The position numbers and the translations under genes are program-made. Below the pieces are notes generated by a model, which saw only the letters and a program-made list of their open reading frames with translations, did not search any database and was not told where the DNA came from. This document shows positions 46,421-64,000 of a stretch of 64,000 nt of DNA, piece by piece. Source of the DNA: Somniosus microcephalus (taxonomy: Eukaryota); contig CM126208.1 in the NCBI GenBank assembly GCA_052327205.1, forward strand, positions 245,768,001 to 245,832,000. Reading direction: 5' to 3'. The stretch's first letter is position 1. The number at the start of each line of letters is the position of its first letter.

Positions 46421-49400
46421 TGTTGTGTATGTACCTTTAAGAGAATAACTGGTCTCAGGCTGCAGTACCGGCAGTGACCACCCCTGTATAAAAGGCGCTA
46501 GAGAGCCTCTGTTGGTTAGTTTCGTTTATGCCTTTCACCAGTAAAGACTTGTTTGTTTCTCTCCTGCTAGTCCGTGTCTCAATCATTCACGGACTTAACA
46601 CTGGCGACAAGTTAGAAACGAACTTACCTGCAACTCAGCAGCAGCTCCGACGACGTGTTGAAGGTCGGAGCCAGAAGAAAAAAAAAAATAGGCCATTGAA
46701 ACTCGAGAAACGGGCGTCGACCGTCAATCATCGACTTCAAAACTTGCAGGAGAGACTGTCCAGAGCCAGGCTGGGTTCCTCAGTCCATGGTTTCCCAGCT
46801 AATCGGGCTGGTGGCAGGTAGTGCTCTGATCCTTCCTGGGCTGCAACGGGGCCGGGCAGCGAGTCGGGAAGCAAGGAGAGATAGAGAGGGTGGAGCATAC
46901 AGGGCGCGGCCGGTGTTTCGAAGCTGGGCAGCGTTCGGACCTCAGAAGAGGGAGGGAAGTGTTCCAGAGGGTCCGCTCCATGACGGGAAAATAATAAAAG
47001 AAAAAGAATACGCGCAAGAAACCGTGGAAAGCAGCGCTAACAACAGCGGGGAAGAAGGAAAAGCGCGGGAGGCGCCATTTTGTTAAATCGGAGAAGAAGG
47101 CAAAGCGCGGGAGGCGCCATTTTAGATTTGCAAGATGCCGAAGACTGGCTGTATCACTGCTTTTGATAATACAATAGAGGACTGGACCACGTATGTGGAA
47201 AGAGTCGAGGTATATTTCGAGGCAAATGAAATAGCGGAGGGGAAAAAGGCATCAATATTGCTAAACGTAATGGGCGCTAGAATGTGCGGCCTATTGCGGG
47301 ATCTGATTACTCCAGCCAAACCAAAGGCGAAGAGTTTTAACGAAATTGTTGCTGTTCTACAGGAGCACTTAAACCCTGCACCGCTGTTGATAGCAGAAAG
47401 ATTTAAATTCCACAGGAGAACTCAGCACAAAGATGAGAGCAATGCTAAGTATCTTACGGAACTACGCAAGCTATCAAAGCACTGCCAGTTCGGAGCAGGA
47501 CTGGCAGATACCCTACGGGACAAATTTGTCTGTGGACTCCTGAGTGAAGGAACACAGAAGAAGTTACTCTCAGAGAAAGAGCTGACGCTAGATAAGGCTT
47601 TCAGCGTGGCAGTATCGTATGAAGCAGCAGCCAGGGGAGCTGCAGAAATTCAACAAAAACCACAGGAATACGGCACCCACGAAATGACACGGGGATTTGC
47701 AAAATGTTATCGCTGCGGCAGAACTAACCATGACCAGAAGGACTGCTGGTCCAAAGACAAAATATGCAGACAATGCGGGAAGATTGGACACATTGCACAA
47801 GTTTGTAGGTCTGGGAAGAAGACCAGCGACAACAGAAAGGCTACAAAGGAACCGTACAAGAAAGTACATAAGATGAGCGATAGTGAATCCGAGAACAGGA
47901 GATTAAGCTGTCTCAAACTTCACAATGTAATCTCAAAAGAGGATCACCGAACCATTTGGGTCACCCTCACGATAGCAGGGTCCCAAGTTAAAATGGAATT
48001 GGATACAGGATCAGCGCTAACCGTCATGAATCGACGAGACTATGAGCAGCTATTTTCACACATACCCTTGAGAGAGACATCCATCGTCTTGACGACGTAT
48101 ACGGGGCAAAAAGTATACCCCAGGGGAAAAATAAGGGTGCCTGTCGAATACAATGGCAAGAAATTACGGAAATTGTATCTCTACATACTGCCAAATGGTG
48201 GACCACCGTTATTGGGACGGGAATGGGTCAGGAAGATAAACTTAGATTGGCATTCCATTCATGCAATGACGGTGGACGGTAAAAAAGATGAAGACGTCAC
48301 TCCTGGACGATTGTCAACAATCTTAGCTAACGCCAAAGAGGTATTTCAACAAGAACTGGGCACGCTTAAAGGCGTAACCGCCTCGTTAAAAATAGAAGAG
48401 AATGCAGTTCCCAAGTTTTTCAAAGCGAGACCGGTACCATATGCAATTCGTCCAGCCGTCGAGGCAGAGCTGGAGAATCTGGAGAAGGCGGGCGTGTTGT
48501 CTAAGGTCGACTGGAGCGAGTGGGCAACACCCATCGTTCCTGTCATGAAGAAAACATTAAGCAATAAGTCCGGAGAGCCAAGGAAGATTCGCATCTGTGG
48601 GGATTTCAAGGTGACGGTGAACCCTGTCCTTCACACAGTACAATATCCTCTTCCAAGGATAGAAGACATGTTCGCCTCACTGTCTGGAGGGAAGCGTTTT
48701 ACAAAAATTGACCTAGCACAAGCATATTTGCAGATGGAGGTTGAAGAGTCCTCTAGGAAGTATCTCACGATAAACACTCACAAAGGTCTTTACCAGTATC
48801 ATCGATTGGTATTCGCAGTAGCATCGGCTCCGGCGATATGGCAAAGAGCGATGGAACAAGTCCTGCAAGGGATTCCGGGGACTCAGTGTTACTTGGACGA
48901 CATCCTTGTAACAGGTGAAGATGACAGTGAACACCTTAACAACCTAGAACAGGTGCTCACTAGACTACGGGAACATGGGCTGCGAGCCAACCGCCCCAAG
49001 TGCGAATTTTTTAAGAAACAGATATCGTATTGTGGCCACGTGATTGATGAAGAGGGGTTACATAAGTCCCCTGACAAAATTGAAGCGGTTGTTAAGGCCC
49101 CAGCGCCTGAAAATGTGTCGCAACTGAGGTCATTCCTCGGGTTGGTGAATTAAATTAAGTTTTTGCCGAATTTGTCGACAATTCTGCATCCACTGAACGC
49201 CCTGCTATGAACGGGGGTAGCATGGAAATGGAGCGATGATTGTAAACGTGCTTTTCAGAAGAGTAAGGACTTAATCACTTCAAGGGAAGTATTGGCTCAC
49301 TACAACCCAGCACTGCCAATCAGGCTGGCGTGTGATGCGTCTCCCTACGGCATTGGGGCGGTACTGTCACATAAATTCCTTGATGGTTTGGAGAGGCCGA

Positions 49401-51351
49401 TAGCTTTTGCGTCACGCTCGTTAACTTCTGCCGAGCGTAACTACGCCCAGATTGACAGAGAGGCCCTCACCCTAGTGTGGGGGGTGAAGAAGTTCAATCA
49501 CTATCTGCACGGTCAAAAATTTACTCTACTAACCGATCATCAACCTCTTGTCTCCATTTTCAACCCTCAGAAGGGCGTACCGATAATGACAACACAACGG
49601 CTGCAGAGATGGTCCCTTTTCCTAGGGGCACACCAATATGACATCGAGTACAGGGGAACTAAACAGCATGGAAATGCTGATGGATTGTCACGTCTACCGT
49701 TGCCGACGGTGGAAGAAGGAAACCTTGCAGTGGATCCAATGGAGTTATTCCACTCGACCATAGTCGAATGTCTCCCTGTGACGAATGCAAACATAGAAAA
49801 GGAAACACGGAATGACCCGACACTATCACGGGTCTATGATTTAACGGTGAAGTGATGGCCAGCACATGGCGAACCACTGCTGCCAGCATTTTCGCCAAGA
49901 AGAGAACAGCTGTCAGCGTGCAGAGGAACCTTGATGTGTGGATCCAGAGTAGTAATTCCACCTAAGTTGACGGATAGAGTGCTCAATGAGCTTCATGAGG
50001 GTCATCTGGGTGGGGTAAAAATGAAAAGCTTAGCCAGAGCGTTTGTGTGGTGGCCGGGAATCGATAGAGAAATCGAAGAGATGACCAAGAGCTGAGCAGG
50101 ATGCCAGAAGGTCCAAAACGCCCCACCACAAGCTCCTCTGCATCCATGAGAGTGGCCCTCATCTCCATGGCAAAGGGTGCACATTGATTTTGCTGCTCCC
50201 TTCATGGACTCGATGTTTTTAATTGCGGTGGATGCACATTCAAAGTGGCCAGAGGTAATAAAAATGTCCTCAACCACCACGGAAAAAACTATCACAGTTT
50301 TACGAACCATATTCGCCAGGAATGGGCTGCCTGAACAGATTTGCTCTGACAATGGACCACAGTTTGTGTCTGAAGAGTTCCGGAGGTTCTTAAAGAACAA
50401 TGGCGTTAAGCATTACACATCTGCCCCATATCATCCAGCCACTAATGGATTGGCCGAGAGGTTTGTCCAAACATTCAAGAAGGCTATCAAGGCAATGTGT
50501 AATGAAGATATACCCCTACAACACAAGGTGGACAACTTTTTGTTTGCCTACCGGAATGCGACACATGCGGTTACCAACCAAACTCCAGCCATGATGTTCT
50601 TCAATCGAAGACTACGATGCCGCTTGGATTTGGTTTAGCCAAACGTCCAAAGAGATGTGGAGAACAGGCAGTTTCAGAATATGAATGAAAGGCCGACCAG
50701 GAGTTTTAAGATAGGTCAACCAGTTTTGGCCCGGGACTACCGCACTGAGAAATGGCAGCCAGGAACGATTTGTACACGACAAGGACCTCTCATGTATACC
50801 GTGGACGTTGGGGAGAGCATTGTAAGACGCCATGCTGACCAGATTCTAGAGTCACTGGAAAACGTCAACTCCACACCACGATCTGATACACCTGGTAATG
50901 AAATCGACGTTCCAATTGCAGCTACCGCAGAACCGGTAATATTGCACGCAGATGAACCAAACAACGACATTGATTCCGACTCAACATTGCCAGAAGAACC
51001 TAATACTCCAAAGAGGCGTTATCCAGACAGAATCAGGAAGCCTCCTCAAAGACTGAACTTATAATTGCTTAAACTTAACCAATGTATCTAGCAACAGTAA
51101 TTGTGATTGTAATTCGTTATCATTAGTTGTTAAATGAATGTTATGTACTGTTTATCTAAAAGGGGAGGAATTGTTGTGTATGTACCTTTAAGAGAATAAC
51201 TGGTCTCAGACTGCAGTACCGGCAGTGACCACCTCTGTATAAAAGGCGCTAGAGAGCCTCTGTTGGTTAGTTTCGTTTATGCCTTTCACCAGTAAAGAGT
51301 TGTTTGTTTCTCTCCTGCTAGTCCGTGTCTCAATCATTCACGGACTTAACA
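46421..51351 (+). mobile_element. Full-length Ty3/Gypsy (Mag-like) LTR retrotransposon
   Basis: 180-bp LTRs at 46421-46600 and 51172-51351 (3 differences). 5-bp TSD GACAC. PBS TGGCGAC. PPT aaaaggggagga. Confidence 0.96.
47135..51064 (+). pseudogene. Single-frame gag-pol (2x CCHC, protease LDTGS, RT YLDD, RNaseH CDAS, integrase HIDFA/SDNG/ERF) with several premature stops
   Basis: ORF pieces 47135-49153, 49292-49855, 50177-50638 and 50657-51064 are all in the same frame, separated by stop codons. Ends RRYPDRIRKPPQRLNL*. Confidence 0.93.
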
Positions 51352-52782
51352 GACACTAGAGAACAATTAAACAGGTCTTTACTCCATGGAGGTGCCACGA
51401 GGACTCCCTGGGTGGTCCTGTGGTTTGCGACGTGACATCATCGCGTTTGCCCGTGTTTTCCCGCGCTCTTAAAGGGGCCACGCCCCGTACATGCAAACTC
51501 TATATACAAAACACAGTAATGCTTAACACAATGGTACAGGTTTAGGCTGGTGTTAGAACATCATTAAAGAGAATTATATACAGTTAGCCAGAGTCATTCA
51601 GTGGTTCTGCCACAAGCTCAGAGTTTTTGAGCTGGAGTATGAGGTGCAGACATTGCAGGGCATCAGGGATGGGGAGAGATACCTGGACACTTTGATCCAG
51701 GAGGCAATCACAGGTTAGGTAGTGGTACAGGTCGGGTTAGTGGTCAGGGACAGGAGGGTGTGACTGCAACTCAGGCAGGTAAGGAGACCTCAGGTGCAGT
51801 ACTGCAGGAACCTCAGCCTTTGCCCTTGTCCAACAGGTATGAGGGAAAAGCCTGCAGGATGGATGAGCAAGCTGACCATGGTGCAGGAGGCCTTTCAAGT
51901 GGGGGGAGTGAAAGGGAATGTAGTTGTGGTAGGGGACAGTATAGTCAGGGGAATAGATACTGTTCTCTGCAGCCGCAACCAAGAGTTTCAAAGGTTGTGT
52001 TGTCAGCCTGGTGCCAAGGGCTAAAGACATCTCCTCGCGGCTGGAGGGGAACTTGGGGTGGGAGGGGGAGGATCCAGTTGTCGTGGTCCACGTAGGAACT
52101 AATGACATAGGTAGAACTAGGAATGAGGTTCTGCTGAGGGAGTTTCAGGAGCTAGGATCCAAATTAAAAAGCAGAACCTCAAAGGTAAAAATCTCTGGAT
52201 TGTTACCTGAGCCAAGGGCAAATTGGCCTAGGGACAAACAGAGTAGAGGTTTAAATGCGTGGCTCAAAGAGTGGTGTGGCATGAAGGGGTTTCAGTTCAT
52301 GGGGCACTGGCACCAGTACTGGGGAAAGAGGGAGCTGTTCCGTTGGGATGGGCTCCACTTAAACCGGGCTGGGATCAGTGTCCTGGCGAACCGAATAATG
52401 AGGGCAGTAGACAGGGCTTTAAACTAATGAAGCGGGGGGGGGGCGGTAGGAGGATTCAGGAAAGAGTAAATTTAAAAGCAGCGAGAGAAATGTCAAGGCT
52501 CTAGAGCAGAGTAGAGTTTTGGGTAAAAATAAGCAGAGTGGGTCAGGAAGGGACAGAGAGAGTAACAAAGGTAATAAGACATCAGTGACTAAGGTGACAT
52601 CAGGGAAAAAGAGAAATAAGTGGTAAGATTTGTTTTTGTTCTGTTTGAGTATATTTCTGCTAAGTAGATCATAGCCTATCTAATAGAGGGAAGTGCTGAT
52701 TGGTGGGTAGCTGTTGAGTGTTTCTTGTTAAGTTTTAAGTTTATTTCTGCTAAATTAACTCCATAGTCTTGGTGATAGAGGC

Positions 52783-54112
52783 ATGGCAGGGCAGCTCAGT
52801 CCTGTGATTTGCACATTCTGTGCCATGTGGGAAATCTTGGACGCTTCTTGCGGCCTGGACGCCCACGTGTGCAGGAAGTGTCGCCAACTGCAGCAACTCG
52901 AGCTCCAGGTTTCGGAGCTTGAGCGGCAGCTGGAGTCACTACAGTGCATCCGCGAGGCTGAGAAATACTTGGAAAGCACCTTTCTAGAAGTGGTCACCCC
53001 GCAGCCTCAGAATGTGTATGCAGAGGGGAAATGGGTGACCGCCAGACAGAAAAGGAGGACCTGGCAGGTAGGGCAGGAATCCCCAGAGTGCATCTCGCTC
53101 GCTAACCGGTTCACAGTTCTGGAAACTGGTGGGGGTGATGGTTCCTCCGGGGATTGCAGCCAGAGCCAAGGCCACGGCACCAAGGGTGGCTCAGCTGCAC
53201 AGGGGTGGAGGAAGAAGAGTGGGAGAGCAATAGTGATAGGGGATTCATTGGTTAGGGGAAAAGATAGGCATTTCTGTGGACGCAGACGTGACTCCAGGAT
53301 GGTATGTTGCCAGGTGCCAGGGTCCAGGATGTCACTGAGCGGCTGCAGGACACTCTGAGGGGGGAGGGTGAACAGCCAGAGGCCGTTGTCCATATCGGTA
53401 CCAACAACATAGGCAGAAAGAGGGATGAGGTCCTGCAGGCAGACTATAGGGAGCTAGGCGAGAGATTAAAAAGCAGGACCTCAAAGGTAGTAATCTCCGG
53501 ATTACTTCCGGTGCCACGTGCTGGTGAGTACAGGATTCGGAGGATAGAACAGATGAATGCATGGCTGGAGAGATGGTGCAGGAGGGAGGGTTTTAGATTC
53601 CTGAGGCATTGGGATCATTTCTGGGGAAGGTGGGACCTGTACAAGCCAGATTGGTTACATCTCAACAGAGCCGGGACCAATATTCTCACGGGGAGGTTTG
53701 CTAGTGCTGTTGGGGAGGGTTTAAACTTGCTTGGCAGGGGGATGAGCACCAGCATATAGGAGTAGAAAAGATGAATAAGGCGCATAAAAGAGTTCGTGTG
53801 TTGGATAGCACTAGAGAAGAAAGTAGTACTAGAGGCGGTAGTAGTACCATATTAGAGAGGAGCAGACTAAGAAACACTACGAAAAATTCAAAAATGGGTT
53901 TTGAATGCATGTTCGTAAACGCACAAAATGTGGTGAATAAAGTTGGTGAGCTACAAGCACAATTAACCATGTAGCAATATGATGTTGTGGCAATAACGGA
54001 AACGTGGCTTAAAAACAGTGAGAACTGGGCACTTAGTATTCAAGGGTACAAGGAGTTCAGGAAAGATAGTGAAGGATAAAAGGGAGGTGGGATGGCAGTG
54101 CTGATTAAGGAA
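52783..54112 (+). pseudogene. Second CR1 LINE 5' portion: ORF1 (esterase, frameshifted) and start of ORF2 endonuclease
   Basis: VICTFCAMWE...HVCRKCRQL, IVIGDSLVRG, VHIGTNN, PDWLHLN, then FVNAQNVVNKVGEL...VAITETWL. Confidence 0.85.
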
Positions 54113-54115
54113 TAA

Positions 54116-54199
54116 TGTAAGAAGTCACACAACACCAGGTTATAGTCCAACAGCTTTATTTGAAATCACAAGCTTTCGGAGCGCTGCTCCTTCTTCAGG
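54116..54199 (-). mobile_element. Penelope-like element terminal fragment with minimal hammerhead core
   Basis: Minus strand CTGAAGA-aggagc-agc-gctcc-GAAA-GCTT-gtgatttcaAATAAA. Confidence 0.65.
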
Positions 54200-54264
54200 A
54201 AGACATGTCCTAATTCTTCCATTTACATATGGCTGCCACTGAGAGACTGGGCACTTCTTAAAAA

Positions 54265-55390
54265 CCTAAGAATTAGGAGCAGGAGTCGGCCATACGGTCC
54301 CTCGAGCCTGCTCCGCCATTCAATAAGATCGTGGTGATCTTCGACCTCAGCACTTTCCCACCCGACCCCCATATCCCTTGATTCCCCGAGTCCAAAAATC
54401 TATCTATCTCAGCCTTGAATACACTCAACAATTCAGCATCCACAGCCCTTTGGGGTAGAGAAGTCCAAAGATTCACAATCCTCTAAGGGAAGAAATTCCT
54501 CCGCAGCTCAGTCTTAAATGGCCGACCCCTTCTCCTGAGACTATGCCCTCTAGTTCTAGACTCCCCAGCTAGGGGAAACAACCTCTCAGCATCTACCCGG
54601 TCAATCCCCTTCAGAATCTTACATGTTTCAATGAGATCATCTCTCATTCTTCTAAACTCCAGAGAGTAGAGGCCCAATCTACTCAATCTCTCCTCATAGG
54701 ACAGCCCTCTCATCCCAGGAATCAATCTAGTGAACCTTTGTTGCACCACCTCTAATGCAAGTATATCCTTCCTTAGACAAGGAGACCAAAACCGTGCGCA
54801 GTACACCAGGTGTGGTCTCACCAAAGCCCTGCACAATTTTAGCAAGACTTCCTTACTCTTGTACTCCAACCCCTTTGCAATAAAGGCCAACATGCCATTT
54901 GCCTTCCTAATTGCTTGCTGTACCTGCTTGCTAACTCTGCGTTTCCTGTACGAGGACACCTAAACCTCTCTGAACACCAACATTTAATAGTTCCTCACCA
55001 TTTAAAAAATATTCTGTTTTCCTATTCTTCGTAGCAAAGTGAATAACCTCACATTTCCCCCACATTATATTCCATCTGTCACCTTATTGCTCACTCACTT
55101 AACCTGTCTACATCTCTTTGCAGACTCTTTGTGTCCCCCTCACAGCTTGCTTTCCCACCTAGCTTTGTATTGTCAGCAAACCTGGATACATTGCACTAGG
55201 TCCCTTCATCTAAGTCATTAATATAGATTGTAAATAGCAGAGACCCCAACACTGATCCTTGCGGCACCCCGCCAGTTACAGCCTGCCAACTGACCCGTTT
55301 ATCCAAATTCTCTGTTTTTTGTCCATTAACCAATCCTCAATCCATGCTAATATATACCCCCAACCCCATGAGCCCTTATCTTGTGTAAAC
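54265..55390 (-). mobile_element. CR1 LINE 3' fragment
   Basis: KANGMLAFIAKGLEYKSKEVLLKLCRALVRPHL...RTRGHSL. Confidence 0.9.
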
Positions 55391-56103
55391 CCACCCTGAA
55401 ACCTGCTGGAAACTTGGTGGATCCTGTCCCTCCTCTCCACCATACAGGTGCAAATCCCAATTTAAGCCTTGCCCCAACCCCAAGAATTTCAGGGTCTGGG
55501 AAGGAGCGAGATGCATTCTAGTGATCACTGATCTTTCAGTCTGAAACCAACTTAGGAAAATTGGTGCAGTTTTATTGTGGCTTTTTTAATTGTGATTCCC
55601 AATCATTTTTGCACATATCAAATCAATACACCTTTTACTAAATTATAAATGTTCTGATTTTTGACGTGATTGAGTAGTCTGCTTCTACACCCCACCTCCC
55701 CCTCACCCCACATCCTTATCTAGCAATAGCAGAGACCCATTCATACCGGAAGACAGAGCAAATCACGATAGGGTAGATACTCTGATGTGAATACTCTCTT
55801 CAGTTCCCACTCTGAGAATTCTGTCACCAGTGCCACTGACCTCATTTTTCACTTGCTGGAGAGAAGGCTTCACTGAGACTGCTACTCTCAGACTTCTGGT
55901 GTGTAAAAATCGTTTAAACTACGTAATTTTCCATCTGGAAAATTTTACGGGTTATTTAACGTTCAGTTCTTCTCAATAGCTAATGTGACCATGTTTCATT
56001 CTCATTGAAGAGCCATAGGCCTAGAAATTCAGTTGCTTGCGCCACCAGTTTGTGCCCAAAGAGGCCACTCAGAGGCTTTAGCGCCTCTGGCCACAACCAC
56101 CGC

Positions 56104-59100
56104 TGTTAAGTATGTGTATTGTATTGAACAATTAACACAAAGACTTAAACGTATAACTCAAACAGGTCTTTACTGGTTGGAGGTAGGGACTATACTGAAT
56201 ACAAGATTACTGCACAGTGCTTATATACCGGTGTGTTCACCCCCGGTATTACGTCTACAGCAGCCTGAGAAAGTAGTACATCTCTTAAGGTGGAACAGGC
56301 TTAAGCTCTCTTAAGGTGGAACAGGTTACATACACAACACTCCTCCCTTCTTAGCTTTATAGTCATCCCCCCATTTAACATAACGTAATAACATATATAC
56401 ATATATAACTTCATGTTTAACGTAACATATCACAGATTCAGTCTCTGCGGAAAACAGTTCACAGATTCAATCTCTACGAACAGTTGCAACATACTCTTAG
56501 TGGGAACAGTTTACAGGTTCAGTCTCTGTGGGAACAGTTCGTAAATTCAGTCTCTGATCTTAATTCGTTCCAGACAGCATCTTTTCGTAGTGTTCGGCCG
56601 GAGGTAGTAGAAGTAACAATATTTTAAACAATTATTATTTTCGGCCTCTTCTTTTTCTTTTCTGCCTTTTTACAACTCTTGTCGTTCCCATCTTCTCGGC
56701 GGACAGCTGTAATGCTACCAACTCTCTATGTTCTTTAGACCTTAAGTGCTTCCTCCGGATTTCAACACTTTGGGAGTTTCCATCACAATTTGGGCATACC
56801 ACATCCTCGTAGTATTCACTATCACTCAACAGGTCGAGAGGCCCTTCTACTTCTTCCTTACCCAACTGGACGCTATCCGACTGCTGTTCCTTCTCTATCT
56901 CTCTTACTTCCCGTAGTAGAGCCACCTTCTTCCGATGTTCCGTAGACTTTTGGTGCTCCTCCATGATTTCTGCACTTTGGGGGTCGAAGTTACAAGCTGG
57001 GCAGGACAGGACATCGTAATATTCGGAGTCGTCCGACAGGTCATGGTAATATTCGGTGTCGTCCTGAGCTAGGCCAGCGAGAGGGTCGTCTATTTCCTCC
57101 ATACCCAGCTGGACGTTAGCCAGCTCTTGTTCCAAATCCAGACATCTTTCCTGAAGAGACTTCTTCATGTGTACCTCTGCATCCAGCTTTTTCTGGGCTT
57201 TCAGCAAGTCGTTTACTAGTGACCTCATTTGTGATTTTAATACTTCAACTTCCTTTGGAGATTGATTGCTCGGACTATGCAGTCCCTCTACCGGAGCAGC
57301 TGTTTCAGCGGTCTGTTGTTCTACATTGACGTGAGTCAGCGTACTTTTGGCATCCAATGGCTGCTCTGTTGCAGTCGTTTCAGTCTGTGTCGTCACATCA
57401 GCCATCTCAATGACTTTTGAGAGCTCCGAACCCTTTTCCTTTGAAGATCGCAGCTCGTGTTCAAGTTTTTCCCATTTCAGAGTCTTGTCCCTCAGCATAT
57501 GAAGGAGTTGGCTGACCGTTAACTCTTCTGACACCAGATTATGGCACGCACCTTCAGAACCTGAATCAGCTTTGATTCGTTCGGCCTCCTCGCGCAGATG
57601 GTTGGTGTGCTCCTGCTCCATTTTCTCCATCAGTTGCTTCTGTTGCCTTTCCAGATTCTCCCACTCTGTAACAAAGAACTTTTTTATTTCATTCATCTCT
57701 TGCTCAAAACGGCGAATCATTTGTTCTAATTGCTGTTGTAGTTTGAAATGGAGTTGAGTTCGAGCCCAGTGTCCCTCAAAAATGTGCATATCAGTAGACT
57801 TGACAGACTCAGAATTCTCTGTTAAACTATGTTGTTGTTGCTCAGTGGAATTCTGTGCTGAAACTTTGTCTTTTGCACATGGGTTGGTCTTACCATCATC
57901 AGTTCTAGAGTCTGGGCTGATTATCTGCACCGAGTTCTCACTCTTTATGGCTTTTAGCGAATGCCAGTCCATATTTATGTTTCTAAACCACTCCCGGCCT
58001 AGTAGTGGTGGACCTCCCTCCGGTAGCACATATAAGTCCATTATTTGACTTCCTTCGCCCTTGTTGGCCACTGCAACCTTTATTGTCCCGATGGGGTACA
58101 CTCTCTGCCCCGTGTAGGTTGTCAATATAATCTCCGTATCCTGTAGGGGAATATGTTGGAATAACCTTCTGTAATCTTTCTTATTCATGACCGACAATGC
58201 CGATCCAGTGTCCAATTCCATTTTTACTTGGACTCCTTCTATCTGAAGAGTAACCCAAATTGTCTGGAGGTCTGCACCCTTACCAACGTTGAGTACCCTT
58301 AAGCTAGCCAGTTCAATACTGCTTGCGTCTGAATCGGACTCCTGTTCGGCCACCTTGTGTACCTTTGCGTATTTTCCTTGCGGTGACTTCTTGTTGCTGG
58401 TCTTCTTCCCTGACCTGCATACTCTAGCTATATGTCCAAGCCTACCACAAGTTCTACATTCTTGGTTTTTAAACCAACACTGGTTCTGATCATGCGTTGT
58501 CTTTCCACAACGATAACATTTAACAGAACTCACACCCAATTTGTGTGCACTGAGCTCCAGTGACCGTAGCTGCATTACTGCCATGCCTCTCGCTGCGGCT
58601 TCGTGTGCTGCTGCCATAGTGACCGCCTTCTCAAGCGTCAGCTCATTCTCCTCGAGCAGTCGCTTTTGTGTATCCTGTTTAAATAAACCACACACAAATT
58701 TGTCTCGTAGTGCATCTGTCAGTCCCGTTCGAAACTGGCAATATTTCGCTAATTTACGCAATTCCAGCAAATATTCAGCATTGCTTTCATGCTGTAGCTG
58801 CCTTCTGTCGTAAAATTTAAATCGTTCCGCTAGCATCAGCGGCGTGGGGTTTAGATGATCTTTCAGGACAGTAACAATCTCATCGAACGTCTTATCCGCC
58901 GGTTCATCTGGTGATAACAGGTGTTTCAATTGCCCGTATGTCTTCGCACCCATTAAATTTAATAATGTTAGTGCTTTATCAGCCTCGCGAATTTTATTGG
59001 CCTTACAATAATTTTTAACTCGTTCAACATATATGGCCCAATCTTCGATGTCACTATCAAAGTTGCTAATATTCCCGTGTTTAGGCATTGTAGTACTTTA

Positions 59101-59906
59101 TCAGATTTGCAATTTCTCAGATTTTTTTTTTTTTTACTGCTATCCAAGATGGCGGCTTCCCGCTCTTGCCGTCGTCCTCCGCCCACAAAATGGCGGTTTT
59201 CCCGCGCTTGGCGGTCTTCACCCGTCCCCCGACGCCGTCTCCCTTCAGCCCCGAGTGCGGCCCTTATCTCCGCCGCGATCGATGGCCCGCGCTTTTCACC
59301 GCGGCTCTCGCACCTTCAGTGTCTGCCGACGCTGCGCCTTTCAGCCCGAGTGCGGCCCTTATCAGGGATTTCGATCGATGGCCCGGCTGCGCCTCGCACT
59401 TGAAAGCGGCCCGGCCCTTATCAGTGCTTGCGATCGATGGCCCGGCTGCGTCCCTCACTTCAAAGCGGCCCGGCCCTTATCTGCCGATCGCTATCGCCCT
59501 GTACCTCTCTCTTCCCCAGTCCTGTCTTCTACTCCGGTTCACAAGCTGATGGAGGCTTCAGGGTCCTAATGCCTGTCGCTTCCAGTGGGGTGGTGAGTGG
59601 TGAGGTTTGAAACCTCTCTTCAACCGCCGTGGAATAACTGCCGCAGGGTAAGAACCTGACTCGTCGCCAGTGTTAAGTATGTGTATTGTATTGAACAATT
59701 AACACAAAGACTTAAACGTATAACTCAAACAGGTCTTTACTGGTTGGAGGTAGGGACTATACTGAATACAAGATTACTGCACAGTGCTTATATACCGGTG
59801 TGTTCACCCCCGGTATTACGTCTACAGCAGCCTGAGAAAGTAGTACATCTCTTAAGGTGGAACAGGCTTAAGCTCTCTTAAGGTGGAACAGGTTACATAC
59901 ACAACA
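56104..59906 (-). mobile_element. Young non-autonomous Gypsy LTR element carrying captured host coding fragments
   Basis: Identical 236-bp LTRs at 56104-56339 and 59671-59906. PBS TGGCGACGAG next to the 5' LTR. PPT aagaagggagg next to the 3' LTR. No RT, RNaseH or integrase core. Confidence 0.95.
56635..59088 (-). CDS. Chimeric 817-aa Gag-protease fused to STK10/SLK-like, optineurin-like and 2x DNAJC21-like zinc-finger segments
   Basis: aa 1-380 are colinear with Gag-PR of the 47135 element (two [18 protein letters not shown]). aa 438-507 is a PKK coiled coil. aa 508-656 contains EELTVSQLL...TQTE...MKKSLQERC. aa 659-817 has two CPxC...H...H fingers and a basic tail. Uninterrupted ORF. Confidence 0.9.
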
Positions 59907-61402
59907 CTCGCGATATTTAGCGGGGCGCTAATGGCGGCGTTAGCCTGTAGTGCTGCGCCGCCACCGATTATGTCATCAGTGTGCGCAGCGCCCCGCTACC
60001 GCCCCGAGCGCCATATTAGGTCGCGCCCGCCTCTTCCGCGCCGGCCGCAAATAGCGACCGGTACACAGGGGCCTACCTGTGGCGGTAGTGGGGCGAGTTA
60101 AGGTGGAGGTGCGGCCGACCGCTTTTTCGGCGGCCGCCTGCCCGCACCTCCGTCCCCGGCCTCCTACACCCCCCCCCCCGCGGCATTGCCGGCTGTTTCC
60201 CGAGAGCCCGGCACTTCTCCTTGGTGCCGGGCTCATTTGCCGGCACTCGCGAGCGGGGATCGCGCTGTTGCAGGCACCTCCCCCTTAACAGTGGGCGGAA
60301 GGCCTGCAGTACCATAGCCTGCCGTGCCGCAGCGGGTGGCGCTGCGGCACTTTGCGCGCCGATATTCAGTTTCAGCGCCCCAAGCGGGGCGCCGAAAGCC
60401 TTGTGTAGCGGCCGGCTTCCACTTGGGGCACTGAAACTGAATATCCCGATGGCGCAAGTGGCTCCGCGCGCAGCGGTAATTCCGGCGCCCAGGCGAGCTG
60501 GGCGCCCCAAACTGAATTTTTAGCCCAGAATGAGTTCACTATTGTGATGTTCTGTTCACACTTAGAAGTAATTTCCTCAACACACATACATGCAAACTCA
60601 CACTATGACACTCTTAAGCAAGAATCAGGTCCCTTTAATGGCCACATAACGAATAATGAAGTTCTAGTCTGTTTCCTATTGCAGATATGTCCATTGTTTT
60701 ACGTAAAATGGAAGCGTGTTCAACAAGCTGAACTGTCTGAGAACTGTGCTAAATTTGTGGGATGTAGACATAACACCATCGTGCAGCTGGGGGTGGGAAT
60801 TGGGTGCTCTATGATGTTCTTCTACTTGACCTCCTGAGTGTAAACACTGAACTACATGCAAAAGTAACACTATGTATACACACAGATGGTTGCATTGAAC
60901 TTTGAAGCTTGGATTACGGGGTGGTCAAGTATATATTTTAAAAAATGGCCAAAGACTGGAAATCTGAAAAGAAAAAGATGCTGGCATCACGGAGCTAGGC
61001 CCATCAGTAAAAATGCAATTTCCAGCAATTTCTGTGGTTGTTATGCTAACTGGAGCTTGTCACTACAATCAAAAGGATTGGAATTCTGGGTTATTTAAAG
61101 CCTCAGTTATATAGCCACTTTCATGTCTATGCAAAGTCACTTCAGCCATGCAGCAAAGCTCTGGAGTCAAGCACTGATAGGACTCTGAAGCACAATAGAA
61201 CTGGAGCAATATGAGACCATCTGGGCTTGGGCTAGACTCCGTGTGAAACCCAGTTTTAAAAGTGCTCAGGAAGTCCACTGGACCTCTTGGGCACTTTACA
61301 AACTTACGGCAGAACCATTTTTAAGGTTATGGGAAAGTGGATATTCCTGCCCGCGCTCTCCTAACATTAGAAAAAGTGCTGTGGCAACAGGACTCTCTCC
61401 TA

Positions 61403-64000
61403 AAAACATAGAAACATAGAAGATAGGAGCAGGAGTAGGCCATTCGGCCCCTCGAGCCTGCTCCGCCATTCAATGAGATCATGGCTGATCATCCAAATTC
61501 AGTACCCTGTTCCTGCCTTCTCTCCATACCCCTTGATCCCTTTAGCCTTAAGAAATATATCCAACTCCTTCTTGAATATATTTAATGAATTGGCCTCTGC
61601 TGCCTTCTTTGGTAGAGAATTCCACAAGTTCATCACTCTCTGGGTGAAGAAATTCCTCCTCATCTCTGTCCTAAATGGCTTACCCCTTATTCTTAGACTG
61701 TGACCCCTGGTTCTGGACTCCCCGACCATCGGGAACATCCTTCCTGCATCTAGTCTATCTAGTCCTGTTAGATATTTATAAGTTTCAATCAGATGCCCTC
61801 TCATTCTTCTAAACTCCAGCGAGTACAAGCCCAATTGACCCACTCTCTCCTCATTCGTCATTCCTGCCATCCCAGGTATCAGCCTTGTGAATCTTCGCTG
61901 CACTCCTTCCATGGCAAGAACATCCTTCCTCAGATAAGGCGACCAAAACTGCACACAATACTCAAGATGTGGTCTCACCAAGGCCCTGTACAACTGCAGC
62001 AAGACATCCTTGTTCCTGTACTCAAACCCTCTCGCTACGAAAGCCAACATACTATTTGCCTTCTTAACCGCCCGCTGCACCTGCATGCTTACCTTCAGCG
62101 ACTGGTGCACAAGGACGCCCAGGTCTCATTGCTCTTCCCCTTCTCCCAATCTATGGCCATTCAGATAATAATCTGCCTTCTTGTTTTTGATACCAATGTG
62201 GATAACCTCGCATTTATCCACGTTATATTGCATCTGCCATGCTTCTGCCCAATCACCCAACCTGTCCAAATCATACTGGAGTTTCTCGGCATCCTCCTCA
62301 CAGCACACACGCCCACCCAGCTTTGTGTCATCTGCAAACTTGGAGATATTACATCTAGTTCCCTCGTCCAGATCATTAATATGTATTGTGAATAGTTGGG
62401 GTCCAAGGACCGATCCCTGCGGTACCCCACTAGTCACTGCCTGCCACTCGGAAAAAGAGCCGTTTATTCCAACTCTTTACTTTCTGTCTGCCAACCAGTT
62501 CTCTATCCAAGTCAATACCTTGCCCCCAATCCCATGTGCCTTAACTTTACACGCTAATCTCTTATGCGGGACCTTATCGAAAGCCTTTTGAAAGTCCAAA
62601 TACACCACATCCGCTGGTTCTCCCTTATCTATTTTACCAGTTACATCCTCAAAAAATTCCAGTAGATTAGTCAAGCACGATTTACCTTTTGTAAATCCAT
62701 GTTGACTTTGTCCGATCCGGTCACTGTTTTCCAAGTGCTCTGCTATTACATCTTTTATAATGGACTCCAGCATTTTCCCCACTACCGATGTCAGGCTTAC
62801 CGGTCTGTAATTCCCTGTTTTCTCTCTACCACCTTTTTTGAACAGTGGGGTAACATTAGCTACCCGCCAATCCATGGGTACTGTTCCAGAGTCTATCAAA
62901 TTTTGGAAGATGACCAGCAATGCATCCACTATTTCTAGGGCCACTTCCTTAAGTACCCTAGGATGTAGATTATCAGGCCTTGGGGATTTATCGGCCTACA
63001 ATCCCGTCAATTTCCCTAACACCATTTCCCTACAAATACTGATTTCTATCAGTTCCTCCCTTTCATTAGACCCTATGTTCCCCGACATCTTTGGGAGGTT
63101 ATTTGTGTCCTCCTTTGTGAAGACAGAACCAAAGTATGTATTTAATTGGTCAGCCATTTCTTTGTTCCCCATTATAAATTCCCCTGATTCTGACTGCAAG
63201 GGACCTACGCTTGACTTCACCAATCTTTTTCTCTTCACATATCTATAAAAGCTTTTACAGTCAGTTTTTATGTTCCCTGCAAGCTTACTCTCATACTCTA
63301 TTTTCCCCCACTTAATTAATCCCTTTGCCCTCCTTTGTTGAATCTTAAACTGCTCCCAATCCTCAGGTTTACTGCTTTTTCTGGCCAATTTATATGTCCT
63401 CTCCTTGGATCTTATGCTATCCCTAATTTCCCTTGTTAGCCACGGTTGAGTCACCTTTTTTGTTTTATTTTTATGCCAAACTAGGATGAACAAATTCTGT
63501 ATTTCATCCATGCGATCTTTGAATGTTTGCCATTCCCTATCCACCGTCAACCCTTTAAGTGACATTCCCCAATCAATCGCGCCTCATACCATCGTAGTTT
63601 CCTTTATTTAAATTCAGGACCCTAGTCTCTGAGTCAACTACTTCACTCTCCATCTTAATGAGAAATCCTATCATATTATGATCGCTCTGACCCAAGGGGC
63701 CTCGCACAACAAGATTGCTAATTAATCCTTTCTCGTTACATAATACCCAGTCTAAGATGACCTGATCTCTAGTTGGTTCCTCGACATATTGGTCCAGGAA
63801 ACCATCCCGTATACACTCTAGGAATTCCTCCTCCACAGAATTGTTACTAATTTGGTTAGCCCTATCTATATGTAGATTAAAGTCACCCATGATAACTGCT
63901 GTGCCCTTATTGCACGCTTCTCTAATTTCCCTTTTAATGCCATCCCCGACCTCCGCATTATTGTTTGGAGGTCTATATACCACTCCTACTAACGTTTTCT
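61403..64000 (-). mobile_element. Relatively young CR1 LINE, ORF2 (endonuclease-RT) with a few frameshifts, continuing beyond the window
   Basis: [48 protein letters not shown]. 3' (CTATGTTT)n tail. Confidence 0.95.

Follow-up and report, generated by a model that had tools for sequence, protein, structure and literature searches.

The paired zinc fingers and basic tail encoded near the end of the window (the whole 64-kb stretch of Somniosus microcephalus DNA analyzed here) belong to a young 3.8-kb non-autonomous Ty3/Gypsy LTR element at positions 56104–59906. The element has an 817-codon minus-strand open reading frame (ORF; 59097–56635, with a Met codon at 59088) that continues from gag and protease, without a change of frame, into spliced segments of the host genes STK10 and optineurin (OPTN), and the two fingers and the tail form the end of this frame. 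Host cargo sits in place of reverse transcriptase, RNase H, and integrase, none of which was found by Pfam in the ORF. We propose, with a probability of roughly 0.5, that the two fingers and the tail are a selected C-terminal module of a Gag–protease–cargo polyprotein, a folded handle that would contact nucleic acid or serve nuclear import in place of a lost integrase tail. The features of the element are as follows.

59671–59906, minus strand: 5′ LTR of 236 nt, TG...CA, identical to the 3′ LTR
59660–59669, minus strand: primer-binding site TGGCGACGAG, immediately 3′ of the 5′ LTR; the same or with one change in nine of nine full copies
58348–59088, minus strand: Gag, start Met at 59088; weak Pfam zf-CCHC match; dN/dS of ~0.1 between lineages
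58518–58477 and 58458–58417, minus strand: the two CCHC knuckles of Gag (Pfam zf-CCHC, weak)
57943–58266, minus strand: aspartic protease (Pfam gag-asp_proteas, E = 5.7e-5); dN/dS of 0.08–0.10
58215–58198, minus strand: protease DTG site, intact
57565–57942, minus strand: captured STK10 pieces (host residues ~400–479 and ~616–692, PKK coil; Pfam PKK, E = 4e-12)
57094–57564, minus strand: captured optineurin coiled-coil piece (host residues ~228–384, with an upstream internal deletion; 70% in amino acids to shark OPTN)
56899–57087, minus strand: unit 1, a DNAJC21-derived acidic linker with a 30-nt duplication and C2H2 finger 1, lineage A (94% in nucleotides to copy L115)
56880–56898, minus strand: approximate recombination junction between lineages A and B, an A-like to B-like switch in a shared purine-rich stretch
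56680–56880, minus strand: unit 2, an optineurin remnant, a shortened linker, and C2H2 finger 2, lineage B (81% in nucleotides to copy L170; pN/pS of 0.25)
56635–56679, minus strand: basic C-terminal tail and stop, a DNAJC21 basic stretch followed by out-of-frame STK10 codons (by comparison with host DNAJC21 and STK10)
56340–56355, minus strand: polypurine tract adjoining the 3′ LTR, the same in nine of nine full copies
56104–56339, minus strand: 3′ LTR of 236 nt, identical to the 5′ LTR

The window copy is one of many. All 40 scored genome matches to the finger-region DNA are ~100% identical, and a 30-mer from finger 2 has 710 genome matches at two or fewer mismatches compared with 0 for the reversed control, so the finger-2 sequence is not a chance occurrence. 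The two-finger product is thus present in at least 710 copies, within a family whose finger-bearing members number at least 9,371, the latter figure counting exact genome matches to the linker common to the finger-bearing lineages. Among 20 two-finger copies that were fetched, 15 keep an ORF of at least 820 codons; both ends were found in nine, all of which are flanked by 5-bp target-site duplications and six of which have identical LTRs. The flanks of the window copy (56099–56103 versus 59907–59911) agree at only three of five positions despite its identical LTRs, and it therefore has no clean target-site duplication, possibly as a result of recombination between two insertions or of mutation. 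Short tandem repeats are present in the 3′ (56424–56562) and 5′ (59229–59481) untranslated parts of the element, the 3′ set resembling, as judged by eye, the end of an integrase gene. Decayed LINE-like pieces with an esterase-like ORF1 and a reverse transcriptase, which we take to be of CR1 type, lie on either side of the element (51600–55500 and 61400–64000).

An autonomous Ty3/Gypsy relative, with the order gag–PR–RT–RH–IN and broken into several ORF pieces, is found in the same window at 46421–51400 on the plus strand. The gag-protease regions of the two elements are 58% identical in amino acids, the starts and ends of their LTRs are common to both, and their primer-binding sites are near-identical. 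These common LTR ends and primer-binding sites are suggestive of mobilization in trans, and the element at 46421–51400 can be regarded as a member of a candidate helper family.

The cargo of the ORF is assembled from spliced host sequence. Shark proteins are the best matches to both the optineurin and the STK10 pieces (the latter at 56% and 75% in amino acids to shark STK10), and at the nucleotide level the STK10 cargo matches three host exons at 88–95%. Host OPTN and STK10 are both present in the genome, and their exons follow one another in the cargo with the introns gone; six OPTN exons are joined in this way in copy L035 and five in the window copy. Across the genome, 66 intronless OPTN matches were scored among 23,841 candidates; the ubiquitin-binding end of OPTN is in none of the longer ones, which include what we assume to be a LIR-like motif. 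Compared with host STK10 (L234–L248), sister copy L152 has a junction in back-splice order, at which a late exon runs to its end and is followed by the start of an exon that precedes it in the gene; the DNAJC21 piece of ~226 nt is inserted inside the earlier, upstream exon with an overlap of ~7 nt. The window copy has lost the back-splice-order junction. In sister subfamilies (L146–L151; L159–L161, L164, and L165), other coiled-coil sequences take the place of optineurin; one of these coils scores as a Pfam myosin tail and is presumably cingulin-like, and the others get no Pfam name and appear to us to resemble EVI5 and RAI14/UACA. Another subfamily (L035–L044) carries optineurin and has no fingers. 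Mosaic copies (L003, L005, L008, L018, L137, and L163) combine LTR halves, gag, or 3′ modules from differing subfamilies, and module swapping is therefore common. The coiled-coil cargo between protease and fingers is likely an exchangeable spacer.

The two diverged units and basic tail that a preliminary description had placed at 56635–57114 read on the minus strand as it claimed. The VQLG start of unit 1 is at 57114–57094 and its finger at 57003–56935; the corresponding positions in unit 2 are 56871–56851 and 56796–56728, and the stop codon of the tail is at 56637–56635. The repeated unit start (VQLG.EE) consists of optineurin-derived residues and not of DNAJC21 residues. The short D[TS]EYY duplication noted in the same description is a 30-nt repeat at 57005–57064 with 90% identity. 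Both fingers have the spacing C-x2-C-x12-H-x5-H, the ligand pattern foreseen by the earlier assignment to the zf-C2H2_jaz family, although the domain score falls short of that assignment: Pfam on the last 164 residues gives zf-C2H2_jaz (PF12171) 20.5 bits (E = 5.5e-4), under its cut-off of 22.6, and zf-C2H2_2 30.2 bits (cut-off of 26.9). Near-host sister copies pass the zf-C2H2_jaz cut-off at 34–38 bits.

DNAJC21 is the source of the finger, of the helix after it, and of the basic stretch, as traced by sequence through the sister copies. A Pfam-guided search of the genome returned 25 loci, 24 of which are family members with a single near-host finger, and this finger has 482 protein matches with DNAJC21 on top, the best named one being white-shark DNAJC21 (71%, E = 6.6e-19). 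A continuous series of element copies links the window fingers to DNAJC21, and the host DNAJC21 protein itself has the basic stretch that begins the element tail. Unit 1 agrees with white-shark DNAJC21 at 26 of 49 aligned residues. The window fingers have diverged too far to be matched cleanly in direct searches: they had no match in a word-indexed protein search or among PDB sequences, an Atlas search returned only zf-met/jaz clusters under the recognition threshold, and a HMMER search of 1.84 billion representatives gave 11 matches, of which eight are generic jaz/zf-met-type or DNAJC21-like (P0250 being DNAJC21-like) and three are unrelated. The DNAJC21 resemblance proposed earlier is thus supported by way of near-host sister copies. 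Only ~75 residues were captured; the J domain and the full-length DNAJC21 protein are not in the element.

Exons 1–4 of host DNAJC21 lie on contig C1 near 2.65–2.68 Mb. The finger exon was not found in the 160 kb past exon 4, a stretch that holds a run of 500 N directly past that exon (C1:2646797–2647297), nor was the remainder of the gene found in the 150 kb that follow this run; the changes in the fingers are therefore gauged by comparison with near-host copies of the element and with other sharks. A genome match to PF21884 was considered as DNAJC21 and rejected, the gene being read as what we take to be DNAJC2.

How did one ORF come to have two fingers? The preliminary description favored duplication after capture, and the head-to-tail arrangement of the units and their common VQLG start are what in-place tandem duplication of a single captured finger, followed by divergence, would leave behind. 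The relationships of the units say otherwise. Unit 1 is 94% identical in nucleotides to the single-finger lineage A copy L115, whereas unit 2 is 81% identical to lineage B copy L170 and only 67% to L115. In a tree of 27 finger rows, unit 1 nests in clade A (100/99) and unit 2 groups with B (100/99), and an AU test rejects a clade of unit 1 plus unit 2 (p = 2.7e-7). The DNA itself turns from A-like to B-like near 56890. Lineage A has 2,712 exact motif matches in the genome, counting its variants, and lineage B has 1,259; all 20 lineage B loci that were read have a single unit. Duplication could be rescued if lineage B had arisen by deletion from a two-unit ancestor, but the more host-like B copies L202 and L223 argue otherwise, and we regard duplication in place as highly improbable. 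Because unit 1 groups with A and unit 2 with B, the tree and sequence comparisons indicate that each unit evolved in a single-finger lineage of its own before recombination joined them. Their divergence predates the joining, so a comparison of unit 1 with unit 2 neither dates nor tests a duplication. Existing copies show the steps, from the near-host finger through the loss of a core Phe (L201) to lineages A and B and then to the A-plus-B join. The mechanism of joining was probably template switching, as described for other captures in the consulted part of PMC5131818.

The tail has a history of its own. Its residues are mostly inherited from DNAJC21, with the final few being STK10 codons read out of frame, and each of the 10 basic positions has a basic residue in both lineage B and the window copy. 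In older subfamilies, the C terminus is an Arg-rich form of the integrase tail. Of 30 upstream-anchored loci, chosen by sequence that precedes the finger, 28 terminate no more than a few residues from the DNAJC21 basic stretch. The now-common lineages appear to have dropped the Arg-rich tail once the DNAJC21 basic stretch became terminal. In successive subfamilies (L050, L061, L066, and L201), this stretch goes from in frame to out of frame and back in frame, and the last step brought a new stop.

The fingers have changed considerably from their donor. A core aromatic residue four places after the second Cys is a feature of the zf-C2H2_jaz fold; this Phe has been lost in both window fingers, being Pro in finger 1 and Ser in finger 2. 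Once the core Phe was gone, finger 1 gained an aromatic residue two places after the second Cys, which we take to be an aromatic swap. The net charge of finger 1 went from +5 to −4, and that of finger 2 is +2. With the core Phe lost in both fingers and finger 1 acidic, DNAJC21-like RNA binding is in question, and JAZ-like double-stranded RNA binding by finger 1 seems doubtful. An alignment-guided model of unit 2, which leans on the DNAJC21 rows of its alignment, has a hairpin and a helix with pLDDT of 75–84 over the finger, whereas a single-sequence model is poor (pLDDT of 53.8). Foldseek with the unit 2 model had no match at E ≤ 0.001, and its weak rows are mostly C2H2 fingers.

Despite these changes, the metal ligands have been kept, as the preliminary description had held for both window fingers. 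Across 114 loci, 153 of the 154 fingers carry the full set of four; the sample includes many near-copies and many loci picked by finger-containing queries, and the one exception is a frameshifted copy. The 30 upstream-anchored loci partly overlap this set, and 29 of them keep all four ligands in frame. Ligand codons were hit by none of ~36 lineage-level amino acid–changing substitutions, a sum over tree paths (P of 0.004–0.016 under two mutation spectra).

For measures of selection, the neutral baseline was built from the private changes of 40 two-finger copies less two mosaics that had inflated the count, and the 38 retained give 83 nonsynonymous to 33 synonymous changes, plus 6 nonsense; the p-values given here for selection are uncorrected picks among ~17 tests. 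Constraint between lineages is strong in Gag and protease (odds of 0.2–0.3, p < 1e-4). Unit 2 differs from lineage B by 19 nonsynonymous and 21 synonymous changes (pN/pS of 0.25, p = 0.007 versus baseline), and these counts agree with the earlier claim of purifying selection on the module and indicate that unit 2 is under such selection. Its difference from the OPTN coil in the same lineage pair reaches only p = 0.07, and for the finger tree as a whole, changes outside the ligands (~36:14) have the same ratio as the neutral baseline, which counts against constraint on the module. The OPTN coil was considered as selected cargo because its value of 0.33 between lineages looked constrained; it was rejected because it shows no constraint against the host exons (26:12, p = 0.84 versus baseline) or the baseline, and its 43:22 against lineage B is also neutral-like.

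In RNA run X8, depth over unit 2 is 22–41 in the expected sense direction and 4–10 in the opposite one; run X9 has the reverse strand bias over unit 2. Both runs have the species label of the run that holds 0.61 of the words, perhaps that of a related species, and the reads therefore speak at most to transcription of the family.

We predict that capture and joining would take place through template switching by reverse transcriptase inside particles, that the polyprotein would co-assemble with the Gag-Pol of a helper, and that the intact protease would release the cargo. The finger and basic tail could then contact nucleic acid or serve nuclear import as successors to the integrase tail, with the benefit falling to the copy number of the element itself. 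Dispersed young insertions, long ORFs, ligand retention, the terminal basic stretch, and the sense reads of X8 speak for such a handle; the acidity of finger 1 is unlike that of a nucleic acid binder, and many family members have spread without any finger. On the sequence evidence, the module has likely been kept because it now aids the spread of the element. A bolder form of this idea, which we hold only tentatively, is that the DNAJC21 finger and tail represent a new accessory domain taken from a ribosome-assembly factor, retooled under selection on the element, diversified, and stacked, that may hijack helper particles, enter the nucleus, or counter host silencing.

The constraint on the module could serve only the folding of the polyprotein. 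In that case, the cargo would be filler that keeps one frame open to the 3′ end, for example to avoid nonsense-mediated decay, and the ligands would be kept because an unfolded C terminus destabilizes the Gag polyprotein. The near neutrality of the OPTN and STK10 cargo fits such a role, as do the exchange of coils between subfamilies, the existence of fingerless subfamilies, and the free change of finger 1 surface residues together with the loss of its core Phe. Purifying selection in unit 2, however, spans linker, finger, and tail alike (pN/pS of 0.22, 0.23, and 0.32), a basic C terminus was arrived at twice by separate routes, and filler could lose its finger by in-frame deletion as the OPTN and STK10 parts lost sequence. 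We consider this explanation possible, if somewhat doubtful. It is unlikely, in our judgment, that the finger was instead retooled to bind or decoy a host defense factor or the machinery of a helper, with the lineage A surface changing adaptively on a conserved zinc scaffold. The path from the near-host finger to lineage A′ has 21 nonsynonymous and 3 synonymous changes, the finger 1 path differs from the OPTN path (p = 0.014), diverged-finger lineages account for every one of the 29 readable fingers at the 30 upstream-anchored loci, and the aromatic residue two places after the second Cys appears after the loss of the core Phe. Yet the 21:3 count is not significant against baseline (p = 0.13), and it does not establish positive selection on finger 1; only the summed path (24:2) gives p = 0.025, and the linker pattern behind the 9,371 matches may under-sample near-host copies. 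As for a host gene domesticated for a cellular role, a long intact ORF and RNA reads would be expected of one, but hundreds of dispersed near-identical copies, target-site duplications, identical LTRs, and neutral private changes that include 6 nonsense changes make this scarcely credible. Our preferred reading thus remains that of a selected handle at the C terminus of the polyprotein.

Gene pieces captured by LTR elements are usually judged by the help that they give to the host. The closest parallels, as far as the consulted part of PMC5131818 goes, are maize Bs1 and animal LTR-mediated retrocopies, in which spliced host-gene pieces also lie inside an LTR element, joined at short common sequences, partly in frame, and mobile again. 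Bs1 is described there as having one to five copies, whereas the family considered here has thousands. These keep a single frame that continues from Gag-protease into the cargo; lineages have exchanged modules, and one captured domain shows constraint during the spread of the element itself. The TR-GAG and GAG-PROT elements of plants, as outlined in the portion of PMC13570524 seen, likewise keep Gag and protease and are without reverse transcriptase, RNase H, and integrase; unlike them, the present element lives in a vertebrate and has pol replaced in frame by host cargo that ends in a zinc finger. Its finger, following helix, and basic stretch derive from the region of the first C2H2 finger of DNAJC21 (yeast Jjj1; PMC6710477). 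Unlike that protein, the element module has neither a J domain nor the second host finger, has lost the core Phe and altered its charge, and cannot be an Hsp70 co-chaperone in 60S maturation. The back-splice-order junction at STK10 exon ends recalls circRNA-derived pseudogenes (PMC4897178, in part), but here the junction sits inside a replicating LTR element and is lost in the window copy.

A shark genome preprint describes intronless, single-exon OPTN copies with LTRs or LINEs within 1 kb and treats them as duplicated retrogenes (10.1101/2024.09.09.611499); in being intronless, they resemble the optineurin sequences described here. STK10 and DNAJC21 are absent from the main text of that preprint, which also has no in-frame Gag fusion in the part seen. 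We found no published report of this retrotransposon family in the literature on optineurin or DNAJC21 retrotransposons, although the bioRxiv supplements, which were not visible, could list copies. Gene capture by LTR elements is known; what is new is the history of the fingers, with its two-lineage join, and the tests of selection.

Overall, every intermediate is still present in one genome, so the change of a host domain under the selection of the element itself can be followed. The pattern that emerges is one of ligands and tail kept, a coil that is neutral, and two versions of the finger recombined. It also serves as a warning that apparent duplicates of OPTN, STK10, and DNAJC21 in such shark assemblies may be the cargo of a single element family. 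Retroviruses and large DNA viruses acquire accessory functions from host mRNA, and this family offers a testable case in which a selfish element may have gained an accessory function in the same way.
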